48,809 nt of DNA from an uncultured bacterium (lineage in GTDB: Bacteria > Patescibacteriota > Minisyncoccia > UBA6257 > 2-01-FULL-56-20), in assembly GCA_963844965.1 (NCBI GenBank), contig CAWJQC010000001.1, forward strand, positions 1-48,809. Direction: 5' to 3'. Shown one piece after another: positions 4,152 to 48,345 of the stretch. Made by a program: the position numbers and the translations under genes. How positions within the stretch are numbered: position 1 is the stretch's first letter; each line of letters begins with the position of its first letter. Under the pieces are notes generated by a model, which had not been told where the DNA came from, ran no database searches, and saw nothing but the letters and a program-made list of their open reading frames with translations.

Positions 4152-4427
4152 TAGAACCCATCTCAAAAATACTTTCAGGTCGCGTTGCGAGAGATTTTCT
4201 CGTATTCGCAAGGCTTGGCGAGGGAGCTGTGCTTGATGCACTGCGACCGAGCCGTAACGCAGCGGGACGAGAAAATCTCCGCAACCCTTCGGGATGCGGT
4301 AAATCGTGCGCAGCACCGTGTCGCTTCGGACTCGGAGTACCGCAGAGGGTACACCTTCGTCCTTACTCCTTGTTCTGCGCACGATTTGCCAGTATCGCGA
4401 CCGAAGGTATTTTCGAGATGGGTTCTA
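4152..4427. other. 276-nt non-coding element bounded by a 21-bp inverted repeat (TAGAACCCATCTCaAAAATAC / GTATTTTCGAGATGGGTTCTA), in a convergent intergenic region; candidate structured ncRNA or MITE
   Basis: Inverted repeat read directly (20/21 match); internal hairpins (cgagagattttctcg, gagaaaatctc); no convincing ORF. Confidence 0.3.
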
Positions 4428-8924: not shown

Positions 8925-9040
8925 TATCCAGAATCTAGAAATTAGAAAGTAGAGAATAGAATAAAGAAAACCAAGATTGAATTAGTTGACTTTCACCTTC
9001 TACTTTCTAGATTCCATTTTCTATTTTCTTGCTCTTTTCG
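8925..9040. repeat. AT-rich palindromic intergenic element (TAGAAAGTAGA / TCTACTTTCTA; AAATAGAAAATAGAA / TTCTATTTTC family)
   Basis: ctagaaattagaaagtagag ... ccttctactttctagattccattttctattttc; related copy at 28441-28560. Confidence 0.45.
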
Positions 9041-18039: not shown

Positions 18040-18252
18040 ATCTGGTTGCTACATTGTTGCACTAAAAAGCGCGGAAAATCAAGCCCGGTAGTGGTTCTGC
18101 GATTGTAATTCGGATTGTATAGTTATCGCTGCACGAGTTCTCCTTGTTTGCTATTTTGTCGTAACAGGCAATGAAAAATCGTTCCGAATTGCGGTGGGTA
18201 TTGTCGCAGAACTACTACCAGGCAAGCCGTGTTATAATTCAAATGAAATGTG

Positions 18253-18376
18253 TCCCGTTAGAGACCGCTTCGCTACGGGAACGCCTCAATTACATAAACC
18301 ATGCCTTATTTGTTAAAAATAATAATGACAGATAACGATTCGTCTAACCGGCGAAGCGTTCCCTGTCTCTAACGGG
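18253..18376 (+). promoter_or_regulatory. structured 5' leader of the pil operon: long imperfect inverted repeat whose 3' arm contains the pilM start codon
   Basis: GTCCCGTTAGAGACcgcttcgctacgggaacgcc ... ggcgaagcgttccctGTCTCTAACGGGAT-GG (14-bp perfect core plus flanking complementarity); ATG at 18377. Confidence 0.3.
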
Positions 18377-19480
18377 ATGGACACCGCGAACATCTTCAAA
18401 ACCTTCAAATTTTTCAAACAGAGCGTTTTTCCCTCGTATCTCGGTGTTGATATCGGCACGACCTCCATAAAGGTTGTGGAGGTGAAGCCGGGCAAGCAAC
18501 TGCCGGAAGTTGTGAATTACGGATTTCTTGACTCAGGCGGCCAGCTCTCGCGCGCGAACCAAGCGTTGCAGACGAGCACGCTTAAACTTTTTGAGAAAGA
18601 AGCGGCAGAACTTCTGAAGTTGTTGGTTGGAGAAATGAAGACCAAAAGTACGGATGCCTTCGCGTCGCTGCCGACCTTTTCGGTTTTTATGACCGTTCTC
18701 GATTTCCCGGAAATGAAAGCCGGCGAGATAGAAAGGTCCATGGTGTTTCAGGCGAAACAATATATCCCCTCGCCGATCTCGGAAGTTGCGCTTGATTGGA
18801 TGAAGGTCGGTGAATATAAGGACGACAAGGGATTCACGCACCAGCAAATACTTTTGATATCCGTGCCGCAGGAAAGTATCAAGAAGTATCAGACGATCTT
18901 CAGGCTTGCCGGATTGAACTTGAAGGCGCTTGAGATTGAAAGTTTGAGCCTTACGAGAATTTTTGGAGGGACCGATCTCTCGCCGGCCATTGTGGCGGAT
19001 ATCGGCAGCCGCTCCACGAACATTATTTTTCTTGACAAAGGGCAGTTGAAATTCAACAAGCAGAGCGATTTTGCCGGAGCGTCGCTCACTCAGGCCCTCT
19101 CGGAGAGTTTGGGTATAAATTCGCTTCGCGCGGAAGAGCTGAAGAAGGAACGGGGGGTCGCGGGGACCGGTCCAAACTACGAGTTATCCACAATAATGAT
19201 GCCCCTTTTGGATGCTATAATTAACGAGATAAAGAAGGCGCGCTACAGTTACGGGGAACAGTTTCCTGGAGCGGCGAAGGCCGAAAGGTTGATCATTTCC
19301 GGCGGCAGCGCCAACCTCATTGGTGTTGAGAAATATTTTGAAAGAGAGTTTGGCCTGCCGGTTATAAAGGCAAATCCGTTCGCGAAGTTTGAGTATCCGC
19401 CGGCAATTGATTCAATGGTACCGGAACTCAATCCGATAATGAGCGTAGCGCTGGGACTGACGCTAAGAGAATTCATTTGA
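18377..19480 (+). CDS. pilM: type IV pilus assembly protein PilM (actin-like ATPase fold)
   Basis: 367 aa, YLGVDIGTTSIKVVEV and DIGSRSTNIIFLDKG motifs. Confidence 0.85.
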   Translation: MDTANIFKTFKFFKQSVFPSYLGVDIGTTSIKVVEVKPGKQLPEVVNYGFLDSGGQLSRANQALQTSTLKLFEKEAAELLKLLVGEMKTKSTDAFASLPTFSVFMTVLDFPEMKAGEIERSMVFQAKQYIPSPISEVALDWMKVGEYKDDKGFTHQQILLISVPQESIKKYQTIFRLAGLNLKALEIESLSLTRIFGGTDLSPAIVADIGSRSTNIIFLDKGQLKFNKQSDFAGASLTQALSESLGINSLRAEELKKERGVAGTGPNYELSTIMMPLLDAIINEIKKARYSYGEQFPGAAKAERLIISGGSANLIGVEKYFEREFGLPVIKANPFAKFEYPPAIDSMVPELNPIMSVALGLTLREFI

Positions 19481-19578
19481 AATTTCTAATTACCAATTTC
19501 TAATTTCTAAATAAATCCCAAATTACAATTTCCAAATTGTTTAGAAATTAGGTATTAGAAATTGGAAATTTAAAGTAC
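19481..19578. repeat. AT-rich intergenic palindromic element (AATTTCTAATT...CCAATTTCTAAATAAAT...TTGTTTAGAAATTAGGTATTAGAAATTGGAAATTT)
   Basis: Homologous to the element at 20841-20968. Confidence 0.5.
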
Positions 19579-20840: not shown

Positions 20841-20968
20841 TAATGAAAATTTCTAATTTCTAATATCCAATTTCTAAATAAATTTTAATATCCCAAATCA
20901 CAAAATTTATAATTTTAGCCATTAAGATTTTGATATTGTTTAGAAATTAGGATTTAGAAATTGGAAAT
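20841..20968. repeat. second copy of the AT-rich intergenic palindromic element
   Basis: aatttctaatttctaatatccaatttctaaataaat...ttgtttagaaattaggatttagaaattggaaattt. Confidence 0.5.
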
Positions 20969-21268
20969 TTGATAACCATGGCCATAGTCATTGAGGAGGA
21001 AAAAAACAGAATCAGTCCAATCAGCATCGCCACTTGGCTTGTGGTGCTTATCATTATCGGCCTCGCCGCTTACTATATCTTTTTCACACAGCCGGAGCTT
21101 ATTGAAGTTGCGGCCCCGTCCAATTTCCAGAACATTGACCCATTGTCAAAAATTAATCTTAATCCCGAAGATGTGGTAAACGGTTCGGGTTTCCAGTCCC
21201 TGAAGCCCACAATAACGTTGCCGGTGCCCGGCAACGCCGGAAGGGACAACCCGTTTCTGGCGCGATAA
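20969..21268 (+). CDS. small single-TM protein inside the pil operon (possible PilP-like)
   Basis: 99 aa, TM WLVVLIIIGLAAYYIFF; no recognisable family. Confidence 0.4.
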   Translation: MITMAIVIEEEKNRISPISIATWLVVLIIIGLAAYYIFFTQPELIEVAAPSNFQNIDPLSKINLNPEDVVNGSGFQSLKPTITLPVPGNAGRDNPFLAR

Positions 21269-28560: not shown

Positions 28561-28639
28561 TGGCCGAGCACAAGGGGCAGACCCCGTATGACAACTGCGG
28601 TAGCGGCAACTCAATGCCGCAAGGAAATTAAGAAGTAAT

Positions 28640-29230
28640 ATGTTTATGCGGCATATTTTTCGCACAGTAGCAGATTTCTTGCGTTGCCGTAGGCATTGCA
28701 ACCGCAGTTGCTCTACGGGGCAGATTATAATTGAGGCCATAGTCGCTTTATCGGCTCTGACCATCTGCTTCGTGGGGATTTTTGGGCTTATTTCAACTTC
28801 GCTCCACTACAACCGTTTCATTGCCAACGACTACACGGGCACCTACCTCGCGGCCGAGGGAATAGAGGTGGTCAAGAACCTTTTGGATTCCAATGTCATA
28901 TCCGGACGCGAGTGGGGCTGCGGATTTATGAACGGCTCTTATGAGTTGACTTATGATACGCAGTTCAAAAGTACGGTTTGTTCGCAATCCGTACTTGATC
29001 CCAATCAATCTAGAAGTTTATACATGGATTCAGGTAGCCACTTATACAACTACAATGTCGCCGCGGCCGGCACCGCTTTTACGCGCGTCGTGACGATCGA
29101 GGTTCTCGAAAGTGACTCGAACGGGAATCCTCAGGAAATGCAGGTCAATTCCGTTGTTTCCTGGAATCAGGGGGCGGGCAAGCAAAGCGTCAATTTGGAA
29201 GACAGATTTTTCAATTGGCACGCGCAGTAA
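28640..29230 (+). CDS. pilin-like protein (..STG|QIIIEAIVALSALTICFVGIFGLIS), Cys-containing C-terminal domain
   Basis: Gly followed by hydrophobic helix with Glu at +5; four Cys in the globular part. Confidence 0.5.
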   Translation: MFMRHIFRTVADFLRCRRHCNRSCSTGQIIIEAIVALSALTICFVGIFGLISTSLHYNRFIANDYTGTYLAAEGIEVVKNLLDSNVISGREWGCGFMNGSYELTYDTQFKSTVCSQSVLDPNQSRSLYMDSGSHLYNYNVAAAGTAFTRVVTIEVLESDSNGNPQEMQVNSVVSWNQGAGKQSVNLEDRFFNWHAQ

Positions 29231-32385: not shown

Positions 32386-32609
32386 TCCCGAACGGGATGC
32401 TAATCGTGGCGGTTGATGACTATCTGGCCGGTGTCACAAGGTTTGGCTCCGTTAATCCCACGACCGGAGTTATGACACAACTCACGGCGACGACCCCGAA
32501 ATTGACGGTAGGATTAGCGGTAAGTCCGCTTGACGGCCGTATCATCGGCTGCGAGCGCGACGCCTGCGACTTCATGCTGGAGCAGTGATGTTGAGATGCG
32601 ATTTTTCGC

Positions 32610-32642
32610 GGCCCCGGGTGCGCTTACCGGGGCCTTTTATAT
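32610..32642 (+). terminator. rho-independent terminator (GGCCCCGGG..CCGGGGCC followed by TTTTATATTTTTAT)
   Basis: Read directly. Confidence 0.55.
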
Positions 32643-32655
32643 TTTTATCATACCG

Positions 32656-33020
32656 TTTTGCCCGGTAGTAGACCGAGTGCAGCAACGCCCCGTCACCAAA
32701 CAAGCACCTCGTTTTTCCCAGCGACTTTGCATATACCGTGCTTTTCGTTCCCAGTATATGACTTGTAGATACCGACGTTTATCCAAGAAAAACGGTCGGT
32801 CGCTGCAGTACTTGTTTGGTGCGGGGCAACGCATGTACGCTTTCCCGCCACAAACGATTACCTTTGGTAAATTGATGGTTTTGAGTGACAGTTTTCCCAA
32901 AATCAGGCGTTGTGGAAAGCGTAGCGCTTGGCTCACTACCGGGTTTGCCCGGTAGTGAAATTGCGAGTGGTCGCCGAAGGCGACGTAAACAAAATGCTCG
33001 CAATTCTACTACCGGGTTTG
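32656..33020. repeat. nested inverted-repeat element: GTTTTGCCCGGTAGTAGAC (32656) ... CTACCGGGTTTGCCCGGTAG (32936, palindromic) ... TCTACTACCGGGTTTG (33005); highly hairpin-rich interior; MITE-like or structured RNA
   Basis: Three copies of the ACCGGGTTTG / CAAACCCGGT core read directly; internal long imperfect IR 32691-32716 / 32808-32832. Confidence 0.45.
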
Positions 33021-33027
33021 TTATAAT
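33019..33027 (+). promoter_or_regulatory. extended -10 TGTTATAAT only 8 nt upstream of ATG 33036 (leaderless mRNA predicted)
   Basis: Read directly. Confidence 0.45.
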
Positions 33028-33035
33028 TTAATCAA

Positions 33036-33518
33036 ATGGCGAAGCTTTCAAAGTCAACGGGAGTTTTCGCGCTCGTGATACTGCTTTTGGCCGCGGTCAT
33101 TGCCGTCATCGTTTTCGTCGCGCTTCGCGGGAAGGCGCCAGCTCCCGCCGCTATGCCCGTAGGGAAACCCACTGCGCAGCCTTTGCCTGCATACGCGCCG
33201 CCGGGCGAGCTCACACCCGGTTTTCCCAAAGAACTGATTCTCGGCGGCGAGGCGACGTCCAGCGGAAGTTATGCGATAAATTACGGCAGCGGCCCGAGTT
33301 TGCGCACAGCATCGTTCGGTTCGGCGAAGTCAATGCTTTCGCTTTTCAATCTCTACAAAACGTACTTCAGGAGCAACGGCTGGACCGTGGTCAACGAAAT
33401 TACCAAATACCAGAATTCGCGCGGTCTTTATGCAGTGAAAAGCGGCGCCGTTTCCAGCGTTTCTATTATTGATAACGGAAAAACGCGCGAGGTCGTCGTG
33501 AGCTATTCGGGGAAATGA
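33036..33518 (+). CDS. secreted/anchored hypothetical protein
   Basis: Signal anchor VFALVILLLAAVIAVIVFVAL; 160 aa. Confidence 0.5.
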   Translation: MAKLSKSTGVFALVILLLAAVIAVIVFVALRGKAPAPAAMPVGKPTAQPLPAYAPPGELTPGFPKELILGGEATSSGSYAINYGSGPSLRTASFGSAKSMLSLFNLYKTYFRSNGWTVVNEITKYQNSRGLYAVKSGAVSSVSIIDNGKTREVVVSYSGK

Positions 33519-44762: not shown

Positions 44763-44830
44763 GGTGTAGTTTACCCCGTTGGATCGCGTAGCGATTCCAT
44801 CGGGGCCCGGTTAACACGTCCCCCTGCTTG
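44763..44830 (+). other. pseudo-tRNA: tRNA-Asp 5' half (GCGGCCGTGGTGTAG .. CGGTTAACACGTCCCCCTG) with a 37-nt hairpin insertion in the D-loop and no 3' half
   Basis: Aligned by eye against the intact tRNA-Asp 110 nt downstream. Confidence 0.45.
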
Positions 44831-44874
44831 CCCCGCACCAAATTTATAAAATTATGAGATTTCGAGCGGTTCGC

Positions 44875-44949
44875 GCGGCCGTGGTGTAGCCTGGTTAACA
44901 CGTCCCCCTGTCACGGGGAATATCACGGGTTCAAATCCCGTCGGCCGCG
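44875..44949 (+). tRNA. tRNA-Asp (anticodon GUC); flanking sequence extends the acceptor helix to about 17 bp (AGCGGTTCGCGCGGCCG / CGGCCGCGCGAACCGCT)
   Basis: GCGGCCG-TG-GTGT-AGCCTGGTTA-ACAC-G-TCCCC-CTGTCAC-GGGGA-ATAT-CACGG-GTTCAAAT-CCGTG-CGGCCGC-G. Confidence 0.85.
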
Positions 44950-45024
44950 CGAACCGCTGGAACGCCTTCGTTTCAAATATTCGATTTCAGCAATAGCACT
45001 AAATGTAAAAATTTGGTGCGGGTT

Positions 45025-45062
45025 ACGGGGAAGGTTGTGGGTTCAAATCCCATCGCCCGCGC
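45025..45062 (+). other. degenerate tRNA-Asp 3'-half fragment (TACGGGGAAGGTTGTGGGTTCAAATCCCATCGCCCGCGC)
   Basis: About 80% identical to the 3' half of the intact tRNA-Asp. Confidence 0.4.
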
Positions 45063-45089
45063 AAAGACAAAGACAAGGTGGGGGATAAA

Positions 45090-45122
45090 GGGAAGATCAC
45101 GGGTTCAAATCCCGTCGGCCGC
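45090..45122 (+). other. exact 29-nt copy of the tRNA-Asp 3' end (ATCACGGGTTCAAATCCCGTCGGCCGCGC), candidate att-site remnant; an inverted 14-nt copy (GACGGGATTTGAAC) lies at 45179-45192
   Basis: Direct repeat of tRNA positions about 47-75, read directly. Confidence 0.5.
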
Positions 45123-45129
45123 GCTAAAA

Positions 45130-45164
45130 CCAAAAGACGATGACCTTGTGCCATCGTCTTTTGG
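45130..45164. other. perfect 13-bp stem-loop (CCAAAAGACGATG-accttgtgc-CATCGTCTTTTGG)
   Basis: Read directly; possible terminator of the tRNA cluster transcript. Confidence 0.4.
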
Positions 45165-45348
45165 TTCCTAATGTAGTCGACGGGATTTGAACGGGGATGG
45201 GGTCGGTCAGACCGCAGTCAGAGGGTATCGCGGACGCGGTCAAGGAATCGCGGTTTTCGTTGCCGTTGCTGTATGCTATACTGTAATTAATAGTTCCAAC
45301 TCTTGCGCTTCTCTTGTTCTTGGTGTATGCTCGAAAAACATGAAAATG

Positions 45349-45890: not shown

Positions 45891-45937
45891 GCCACCCCGC
45901 ACCAAGCCCGACTCGTTTTACATAAGGCAGAATCAAA

Positions 45938-45965
45938 CCCCCACCTTTTCGGAAAAAGGTGGGGG
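45938..45965. repeat. 28-bp perfect palindrome CCCCCACCTTTTCGGAAAAAGGTGGGGG between convergent genes
   Basis: Read directly; family recurs at 47423-47596 and 48272-48345. Confidence 0.7.
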
Positions 45966-45988
45966 TTGAGTTTGCCTATCTGCCTGTC

Positions 45989-47422: not shown

Positions 47423-47596
47423 GTCAACCCCCACCTTTTCGGGAAAAAGACGGGGGTCAACCCCCGCCTTTTCGGAAAAAGACGGGGGTCAACCCCCGCC
47501 TTTTCGGAAAAAGATGGGGGTCAACCCCCGCCTTTTCGGAAAAAGATGGGGGATTGACCCGCCTTTTCGCGCATCGCGCAAAAGGCGGGGGTTGAC
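47423..47596. repeat. tandem array of about 4.5 copies of a 31-32-bp unit (GTCAACCCCCGCCTTTTCGGAAAAAGACGGGG), each a pair of small hairpins; terminal variant with CGCGCATCGCGC loop; no spacers
   Basis: Read directly; ORFs 47291..47609 are translations of the repeat. Confidence 0.75.
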
Positions 47597-47655
47597 CGGG
47601 TTCGGTTAATTTTATATGATATCAATATAAAATTTATAAACTTAACTAAAGTCAT

Positions 47656-48271: not shown

Positions 48272-48345
48272 GACCCCCACCTTTTCGGAAAAAGGTGGGG
48301 GTGAACCCCCACCTTTTCGCGCATCGCCCAAAAGGTGGGGGTTGT
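48272..48345. repeat. two further palindromes of the GGGGG/CCCCC family (CCCCCACCTTTTCGGAAAAAGGTGGGGG and CCCCCACCTTTTCGCGCATCGCCCAAAAGGTGGGGG)
   Basis: Read directly, immediately 3' of the second hicA. Confidence 0.7.

Follow-up and report, generated by a model that had tools for sequence, protein, structure and literature searches.

The Ssn/NTS (SRM) system is built around a single-domain GIY-YIG nuclease acting on single-stranded DNA, the 94-residue SsnA, whose gene is flanked by hairpin repeats (Chenal et al. 2025, PMC11893778). The enzyme binds the stem of the hairpin and cleaves the single strand a few nucleotides upstream, whatever the loop, and it also accepts a stem formed from two separate strands (PMC11893778). 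According to its authors, the NTS-ssnA-NTS layout resembles an insertion sequence (PMC11893778). Here, we describe a non-coding segment at positions 32656-33020 of a 48,809-nucleotide (nt) stretch of DNA from an uncultured bacterium of the Patescibacteriota (GenBank assembly GCA_963844965.1, contig CAWJQC010000001.1), which is referred to as the window over its whole length. The segment is a cluster of mobile elements, and not a single nested structure or an RNA gene. Its ends and flanking repeats make it very probable that it holds three non-coding copies, named E1, E2 and E1b, of one superfamily of small palindromic mobile elements. The copies have the same ends as coding elements of 311-319 bp, and we therefore regard them as putative non-coding relatives of the latter, similar to MITEs (miniature transposable elements with inverted repeats). 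Taken as a whole, the interpretation of the segment as a pile-up of copies of a mobile family that has a GIY-YIG nuclease as its mobiliser appears likely to us.

The Ssn/NTS system is the closest published analogue of this family. Both comprise a GIY-YIG-only protein of ~90 residues, whose gene lies between its own palindromic repeats, and many further scattered copies. Each flank of the Ssn gene is a full hairpin of ~28 nt, whereas the two halves of a palindrome bound the gene as true terminal inverted repeats in the family described here. The family differs further in its 4-bp duplications, insertion at start codons, in-frame fusion to the host ATG, non-coding forms of ~135 nt, and Patescibacteria hosts. 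The published SRM motif HGTCWY..RNCYNB was found neither in the window nor in any of six coding elements (flanks included) and 114 non-coding copies. An 87-residue core with the domains PF01541 and PF10544 and inverted ends on both sides, which corresponds to the single-domain layout of Ssn, is found in members of the family elsewhere and not in the window.

Other described repeats share parts of this organization. The Correia/NEMIS elements of Neisseria and the ERIC elements of enterobacteria are also palindromic and non-coding, 70-160 bp long, with inverted ends and short target duplications; they neighbour genes, with which they are transcribed as hairpins, and some are nested or truncated. 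In Correia elements, the ends measure 26 bp and are unrelated in sequence to those described here, the duplication is TA, no coding partner is known, and the sites are not exactly on start codons, whereas the elements described here have a 4-bp duplication, a coding partner and start-codon sites. REP/BIME-REPIN repeats with their RAYT proteins and the "peel and paste" IS200/IS605 elements resemble the family in the recognition, proposed for the latter, of folded single-stranded hairpin repeats by a small nuclease-type enzyme, in the presence of many non-coding and few coding copies, and in a GTAG tetranucleotide in the end. They use HUH/Y1 enzymes, and lack both terminal inverted repeats bounding the element and target duplications; the REP palindromes measure 20-40 nt. 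In contrast, the duplications are clear here, the units measure 69-139 nt, and no Y1 gene is linked to them or found in the window. Homing endonucleases of the I-TevI and Seg type are likewise selfish GIY-YIG genes between host genes. However, they are longer than 200 residues, contain a DNA-binding domain, and spread by break repair between alleles, without inverted ends, duplications or non-coding derivatives, whereas the nuclease described here is small and comes with inverted ends, target duplications and non-coding forms.

Element copies in the window

The segment is located between a terminator and a promoter, as the first-pass annotation of the sequence had placed it. A terminator-like hairpin, GGCCCCGG...CCGGGGCC followed by a T-run (32610-32647, plus strand, -19.8 kcal/mol), ends the upstream gene and forms the left limit of the pre-insertion intergenic spacer; it escaped a terminator scan because of its 9-nt loop. 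On the other side, the stretch 33019-33038 (plus strand) starts with TGTTATAAT, which contains a -10 hexamer at 33022-33027 and is followed after 8 nt by the ATG of the next gene at 33036. We consider TGTTATAAT to be a predicted promoter with little or no leader, based on its match to the consensus only. Between these limits, the register of the segment reads TTTG-CCCGGTAGT...ACTACCGGG-TTTG-CCCGGTAGT...ACTACCGGG-TTTG, which corresponds to two units, E1 and E2. The two ends of a unit differ, since one begins with CCCGGTAGTG... and the other, when reverse-complemented, with CCCGGTAGTAG.... Judged by this asymmetry, E1 is inverted relative to E2, and the two are arranged head-to-head.

E1 is 283 nt long (32661-32943, minus strand), has the minus-strand ends CCCGGTAGTGAGCC...GGTCTACTACCGGG, and is preceded by its left 4-bp duplication, the direct repeat TTTG at 32657-32660. 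A second TTTG (32944-32947) is common to E1 and E2. E2 is a short form of 69 nt (32948-33016, plus strand) with a 20-bp terminal stem, an inner GC hairpin at 32969-32985, and an A-rich linker. Its right flanking repeat, TTTG at 33017-33020, provides the TG of the extended -10 element. A sister subfamily is represented by E1b, which is 139 nt long (32688-32826) and nested in E1, between two copies of CAACG (32683-32687 and 32827-32831). It has the ends CCCCGTCACCAAACAAGCAC and GTACTTGTTTGGTGCGGGG, of which 19 nt are inverted (CCCCGTCACC.../...GGTGCGGGG), and a 135-nt element with E1b-like CCCCGCACC-type ends and the flank TCAA occurs in another locus (L142). Without E1b and one copy of its flank, E1 measures 139-140 nt. 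After in-silico removal of E1b, it matches the hidden Markov model of the family over its full length on the minus strand, whereas intact E1 matches at its two tips only.

Every string quoted in the first-pass annotation was found at the position given there: GTTTTGCCCGGTAGTAGAC starts at 32655, CTACCGGGTTTGCCCGGTAG at 32936, TCTACTACCGGGTTTG at 33005, the inner hairpin TCGCCGAAGGCGA at 32971, and TGTTATAAT at 33019. Its designation of the architecture as MITE-like was right in kind, given the terminal inverted repeats and the 4-bp direct repeats, and the ends recur in the window and in at least 120 metagenome loci. What it took for one nested element with two hairpin domains is composed of three separate insertions, two of them abutting in opposite orientation and one nested. 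The outer arms match, and a central palindrome is formed, because E1 and E2 abut with opposite orientation over the common TTTG. This palindrome had been called perfect; its two 11-nt arms do pair, but the 4-nt centre TTTG is not palindromic, and the 11 + 4 + 11 nt represent two like element ends abutting over one 4-bp flank. The core had been placed in three positions, but the exact 12-mer CAAACCCGGTAG is present twice; the core common to the element ends is CCCGGTAG(T), and it makes up four of them. The 9-mer CCCGGTAGT occurs five times in the window, compared with 0.14 occurrences expected, and the core is also present elsewhere in the window and in metagenomes. The same segment, with identical sequence, is contained in an independent assembly from another sample (L001), and is therefore not an assembly artefact. 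The exact central palindrome has no match in species-representative genomes.

Two further clean copies and one candidate are located elsewhere in the window. E3 is 139 nt long (18084-18222, or 18080-18226 with its CAAG flanks, plus strand) and lies between a comF-like gene and pilM, 3 nt upstream of another TGTTATAAT. E5, also of 139 nt (28582-28720, or 28578-28724 with its CAGA flanks, plus strand), belongs to a CCCCGT-ended subfamily, and a similar copy is present in L063. E2 and E5 share their spacing to the promoter, in the order flank, T, TATAAT, and E3 is positioned 6 nt further upstream. E4 (18254-18376, plus strand), with the ends CCCGTTAGAGAC and GTCTCTAACGGG, is a candidate decayed sixth copy in the pilM leader without a clean flanking repeat; a 103-nt element with E4-like ends and the flank TGAA was found in L099. 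Thus, the window contains five to six copies per 48.8 kb, with sizes of 69-283 nt, and every clean copy combines inverted ends with flanking direct repeats (TTTG, TTTG, CAAG, CAGA and CAACG).

If E1, E1b and E2 are removed, the spacer would shrink to ~87 nt, containing the terminator, the -10 box and the ATG 8 nt later, as is typical of this gene-dense genome. The comF-pilM spacer, which contains E3, is 337 nt long in the window, whereas it often measures only 50-110 nt in relatives. This difference agrees with an insertion, but the sequences have diverged too far for the spacer of the relatives to be aligned as an empty site. One relative (L003, 6985-7270) has a 265-nt hairpin at the same comF-pilM site, immediately upstream of TGCTATAAT; the 331-nt stretch that was folded reaches -160 kcal/mol, and the ends of the hairpin, GGCGCTCCGACCTCG..., are unrelated. 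The pilM leader of the window (18243-18385) forms a 123-nt hairpin, which is E4, with the pilM ATG (18377) at its foot. Close relatives have the same pilM promoter with the ATG within ~10 nt. The hairpin resembles a decayed copy of the element, and it could hide the pilM start codon.

Mechanically called open reading frames (ORFs) at 32530-32955 (plus), 32637-32936 (minus) and 32779-33003 (minus) cross the elements and are probably spurious. The start of the ORF at 28640-29230 (plus) lies inside E5, and its true start is therefore probably downstream of 28731.

The family in metagenomes and the constraint on its ends

A scan of metagenomes with the pattern CCCGGTAGTG-N(108-128)-CTACTACCGGG, for which a handful of matches would be expected by chance, identified at least 120 loci, mainly from groundwater and sediment. 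Metagenome contigs that share genes with named genomes show 60-85% identity to Patescibacteria. The copies are located at unrelated sites beside housekeeping genes, and nearly identical copies occupy separate sites (L099, twice; L100; L118). Among the matches listed, an exact direct repeat of 4 nt flanks 87 of 129 copies, compared with 1 in 256 by chance. Nested copies are frequent (L092, L095, L103, L115), and tandem copies with one common flank, like that of E1 and E2, were observed in L099, L088 and L094, so the arrangement in the window is a normal outcome for the family. A search for the short form in viral contigs returned seven matches, all of them due to chance in GC-rich coding DNA or to an unrelated CCCGGTAGTAG repeat.

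A covariance model, trained on the metagenome copies alone without sequences from the window, recovers E2 on the plus strand with 64.8 bits (E 1e-13), E3 with 34.9 bits (E 4e-6), E5 with 20.8 bits (E 0.016) and, weakly, E4 with 15.9 bits (E 0.28); these E-values are rough. The model assigns the correct orientation to E2, E3 and E5. It also detects copies whose tips have diverged, in the named Patescibacteria genomes L015, L031 and L064; those of L031, Candidatus Liptonbacteria, have the flanks CAAG and CAAA, like the window.

The terminal helix is formed by the first and last 20 nt of the element, which are 99% paired over 86 copies. Each end consists of the terminal box CCCGGTAGT, a fixed GA/AG difference at positions 10-11, and a variable but matched box. 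The tips of the metagenome copies were set by the search pattern. Thus, the pairing of positions 1-9 was fixed by the query; G is opposite T at position 10, and A is opposite C at position 11 in 111 of 114 copies, an A that the query did not require. Watson-Crick pairs make up 97% at positions 12-20, which covary heavily, as exemplified by position 14, with 44 A-T, 33 T-A, 31 C-G and 4 G-C pairs. In total, 200 double changes were counted, compared with 42 in shuffles, and G-U combinations (8) are rarer than mismatches (17). The interiors are AT-rich and essentially unalignable, yet share a layout, with a GC hairpin just inside the left end (~60% of copies) and an A-run. The internal end motif ACTACCGGG occurs near position 45-55 in about one fifth of the copies.

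The first-pass annotation had also offered a complex structured RNA as an interpretation of the segment, and its helices could in principle act in a transcript, either in a non-coding RNA with defined structure or in a leader with cis-regulatory function, for instance as a site for RNase III or by controlling translation of the downstream gene. Folding of a 391-nt stretch gives -163 kcal/mol for the plus and -158.5 kcal/mol for the minus strand, compared with a shuffle mean of ~-108 kcal/mol (z = -9.1 and -9.3), so the stretch is far more stable than shuffles on both strands. Such stable folds and the covarying terminal helix agree with a function in RNA, as do the location of the copies in 5' leaders, mostly in sense (53 to 8), and a sense strand that is rich in A, contains few T-runs, and has more -10-like hexamers near its 3' end. 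However, the two strands of the family fold equally well (-43.6 vs -44.1 kcal/mol, p = 0.48), and Rfam returned only three tRNAs in the window at the gathering score and nothing credible for 32400-33200 even at E <= 10. On these two grounds, a dedicated structured RNA is unlikely. Furthermore, the helix covaries almost without G-U intermediates, the interiors are not conserved, and E1 lies in antisense to the gene downstream, the -10 box of which comes only after E1 and E2. Flanking duplications and nested and tandem insertions indicate an origin at the DNA level. We therefore give an RNA function very little weight. The rarity of G-U pairs in the covarying helix, together with the equal folding of both strands, points to a constraint on the DNA, in the form of matched ends, and not to an RNA helix.

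Even less probable is the remaining suggestion of the first-pass annotation, that of a recombination site, which would make the segment a cluster of sites of the integron attC, Xer/dif or invertase type. The 11 + 4 + 11 palindrome recalls such sites, the structure is kept while the interior varies, and the fixed mismatch could mark one strand, as extrahelical bases do in attC. However, two abutting element ends account fully for the palindrome. From copy to copy the 4-bp flanks vary, and within each copy they match, as target duplications do, and unlike a fixed crossover core. The ends CCCGGTAGT are not the R''/L'' cores GTTRRRY of attC, and no recombinase, integrase or cassette ORFs are found nearby.

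GIY-YIG relatives and start-codon sites

A generic scan for inverted repeats with matching 4-nt flanks identified a 311-nt element with the family ends and TATG flanks (L189:427-737). It is placed on the start codon of a membrane-protease-like gene, and its interior ORF encodes an 87-residue GIY-YIG protein. A search with this protein found 921 homologue clusters, all but one of the candidates, with the Pfam domains GIY-YIG (PF01541) and T5orf172 (PF10544); the few homologues with a name belong to Patescibacteria, Parcubacteria or Nealsonbacteria. Among solved structures, UPF0213 proteins (E 7e-5) and SLX1 come closest. Most homologues are 97-102 residues long and begin with MPGSENS(T/I)AIM, which is the translation of ATG followed by CCCGGTAGTGAAAATTCGAC. 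The shorter peptide MPGSENS, encoded by ATG and CCCGGTAGTGAAAATTCG, starts 74 of the 120 best of the 921 clusters, and four further clusters of these 120 start with MKIR, the other frame of the same end. The N-terminal peptide is a translated element end, and the nuclease frame usually opens at the host's duplicated ATG and continues through the left end.

DNA was fetched for six further variants, and the layout was the same every time, in seven variants at seven host genes. A (T)ATG flank is followed by the left end CCAGGTAGTGAAAATTCGAC, 7-9 nt, the nuclease ORF, and a stop codon abutting the right end TCGAATTTCTACTACCTGG. Behind it comes an ATG-containing flank (TATG, or ATG alone in L213), the ATG of which is the start of the host gene. 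The coding elements measure 311-319 bp, and the nuclease stop codon precedes the host ATG by 19-21 nt. The host genes are comM-like, PEMT-like, PrgI, an HTH protein, AMMECR1 and a protease, and some of the start codons are operon-internal (L209, L222). In L209 (2109-3023), the upstream dprA now ends inside the left end of the element, and the insertion has therefore changed the C-terminus of DprA. An identical nuclease, P0024, has two upstream flanks and two downstream flanks in three contigs (L213, L214 and L215); either the element moved, or chimeric assembly at the repeat is the cause. In the fetched loci, further GIY-YIG ORFs are enclosed by different inverted ends of the CCCC type, which resemble those of E1b-type and L147-type non-coding units.

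Start codons are also the preferred sites of the non-coding copies. Among the unique copies listed, the flank is TATG in 53 and CATA in 8, and many other tetramers occur at low counts. Insertion is polar (53 sense vs 8), even where the copy has no ORF. With small genes included, an ORF begins at the ATG of the right-hand TATG in 58 of 63 sense and 8 of 9 antisense copies, so ~90% of the TATG-flanked copies are placed exactly on a host start codon, for example at the true N-termini of LeuRS (L151) and of a SecD-like protein (L105). Considering TATG/CATA sites outside long ORFs, 41 elements are at start codons and 13 elsewhere, compared with 385 and 882 available sites, an enrichment with an odds ratio of 8 (p = 2e-12), for which the ORF calls were mechanical and rough. 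No extended motif beyond TATG separates occupied from control start codons. Upstream of 43 occupied starts, a Shine-Dalgarno-like sequence is present once, and a -10-like hexamer at a distance of 4-9 nt is present 12 times.

Two explanations of the start-codon sites were considered and rejected. Targeting of open promoter complexes at leaderless genes is not a general rule, because only 12 of the 43 sites have a -10-like box and coding copies occur at operon-internal start codons (L209, L222). Coupling to an upstream ORF does not account for the non-coding copies, in which the ORF opened by the left ATG stops 60-120 nt before the host ATG.

The family, with the copies in the window, has the features of MITEs, namely 20-bp terminal inverted repeats, a 4-nt duplication of variable sequence, a small non-coding body at many sites, and, in other loci, a coding partner with the same ends. 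The partner gene is not a known transposase. The main rival explanation is that the copies are ordinary MITEs, moved by an unseen conventional (DDE) transposase that binds the 20-bp ends and makes 4-bp staggered cuts, with the GIY-YIG gene as cargo or as a selfish passenger. Terminal inverted repeats combined with target duplications that vary in sequence classically mark transposition by DDE enzymes, and ends that are matched yet differ between subfamilies are what co-evolution of transposase and ends would give. The CCC...GGG tips and the 4-5-bp duplication recall IS1380/piggyBac elements, which have the tips CC(C)...(G)GG and duplications of that length. However, no such transposase was found in the fetched loci, the target is not TTAA, and the only gene between the ends is GIY-YIG; the lead from the piggyBac-IS1380 relationship (PMC5718144) became less attractive once the nuclease partner had been found.

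The searches also speak against an unseen transposase. No recurrent transposase gene accompanies the copies in 808 kb of loci, no DDE transposase with matching ends was detected in 2.2 Mb of fetched loci, and scans with a lower size limit of 320 nt yielded no longer elements with the family ends. Profiles of NCBIfam and Pfam identified no transposase, recombinase, integrase or Y1 gene among the unannotated ORFs of the window. The only gene found repeatedly between the ends is the nuclease, which is tightly packed: its frame runs on through the left end, and its stop codon adjoins the right end. Cargo rarely looks like this. We consider a conventional transposase improbable, although distinctly less so than the RNA and recombination-site interpretations. 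We lean, by a modest degree, towards the nuclease being what moves the copies.

Several observations weigh against the interpretation as a whole. The copies in the window have flanks other than TATG and are located just upstream of -10 boxes, not on start codons. Non-coding copies are not simple deletion derivatives of the nuclease element: a derivation of their interiors from the nuclease gene was rejected for lack of any similarity, and the two forms share only the ends, as do many pairs of MITEs and insertion sequences. The nuclease gene is absent from the 48.8-kb window (tblastn), and mobilisation in trans in this genome is therefore an assumption. Identical coding copies that were checked stay at one locus across samples. 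A same-species search did not recover an empty-site allele, and the homologues of the downstream 291-residue protein, sought for empty sites, comprised only the protein itself. The invariance of positions 1-10 and of the last 11 in the metagenome sample came from the search pattern. Finally, we know of no GIY-YIG enzyme that performs strand transfer.

Genomic context, proposed mechanism and implications

The window contains a cluster of type IV pilus genes, together with a comF-like gene, ligA, and numerous genes without annotation. The best 80 PilB loci from species-representative genomes, with identities up to 74%, mostly have Patescibacteria labels (Paceibacteria, Liptonbacteria, Parcubacteria and others), and a few bear just a generic or Gammaproteobacteria label. 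Several further repeats are scattered over the window. The gene for tRNA-Asp (44875-44950) is part of a 193-nt inverted-repeat unit (44831-45023, within the region 44811-45192), the ends of which, CCCCGCACCAAATTT and AAATTTGGTGCGGG, resemble those of E1b. The tRNA is flanked by a 14-nt complementary extension; fragments of its 3' part recur at 45041 and 45103 and, inverted, at 45178, and a 5' fragment is found at 44811. The unit may be an element that carries or disrupts the tRNA gene, or may represent integration scars.

A 276-nt unit (4152-4427) with 25-nt inverted ends TAGAACCCATCTCAAAAATACTTTC, matched to 92%, contains a nested hairpin at 4298-4390 and lacks a flanking duplication; it may derive from another element family. 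AT-rich palindromes of AATTTCT heptamers (19477-19574, 20847-20970 and 8930-9022) are located between pilus genes and beside a tRNA. They reach weak scores of 13-16 bits with the element model, and have other ends and no flanking duplication. Four tandem 32-nt units of GTCAACCCCCGCCTTTTCGGAAAAAGACGGGG, 96% identical, followed by an inverted 18-nt core (47580-47597), occupy 47423-47597, and related hairpins AACCCCCACCTTTT/AAAAGGTGGGGGTT are found at 45936-45967 and 48304-48343. At 740-866 and 1229-1284, arrays of 11-nt GTAATTCAATT-type repeats on one side of a small ORF face their inverted counterparts on the other side.

We propose that the segment would have been built by three insertions. 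The target of E1 would have been a TTTG that lay between the terminator on the upstream side and the -10 box on the downstream side. The short form E2 would then have entered one copy of the duplicated TTTG in the opposite orientation, giving rise to the central palindrome and the matching outer arms, and E1b would have inserted inside E1. A nuclease made elsewhere in the genome may recognise the paired ends and mobilise coding and non-coding copies in trans. In single-stranded or cruciform DNA, the two ends may form a stem, comparable to the hairpins recognised by Ssn nucleases, and the fixed GA/AG mismatch would give polarity.

A polar insertion with a 4-bp stagger would bring the coding copies in frame behind start codons, and joining and repair would be left to host enzymes. 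Polar insertion into TATG would place the coding copies under the promoter and start codon of the host gene, and translation might re-initiate at the host ORF, ~20 nt beyond the stop codon of the nuclease. The copies in the window would be passive passengers in promoter-proximal spacers.

We would only tentatively go further and speculate that the family is a new class of prokaryotic transposable element, at ~315 bp among the smallest autonomous ones. Its sole protein would be an 87-residue GIY-YIG nuclease instead of a DDE, HUH, serine or tyrosine enzyme. By inserting in fixed polarity into TATG it would use the duplicated host start codon as its own ("start-codon capture"), with the host gene re-initiated, and the ~135-nt copies, including those in the window, would be its hitch-hikers. 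We found no description of MITEs or GIY-YIG elements in Patescibacteria in the literature, the coverage of which was incomplete, so that this is no proof of novelty. To our knowledge, transposition by GIY-YIG chemistry is not among the known insertion-sequence families. The copies in the window appear to be new members of the MITE kind, and their relatives point to a start-codon-capturing GIY-YIG mini-transposon that appears undescribed.

The results bear on the annotation of these genomes: hundreds of database proteins begin with MPGSENS, which is a translated inverted repeat, and ORFs called across non-coding copies, such as 32530-32955, are probably spurious. If the GIY-YIG nuclease is the mobiliser, the family would represent a new transposition chemistry and provide a natural explanation for the insertion-sequence-like layout of Ssn, and the very small nuclease with its pair of ends, which looks programmable, might be a possible tool. 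The genomes of Patescibacteria are tiny and densely packed with genes, and they are usually said to contain little mobile DNA; here, five to six copies make up ~2% of 49 kb, and relatives of these copies are placed on the start codons of essential genes, including those of LeuRS, SecD-like and ribosomal proteins.

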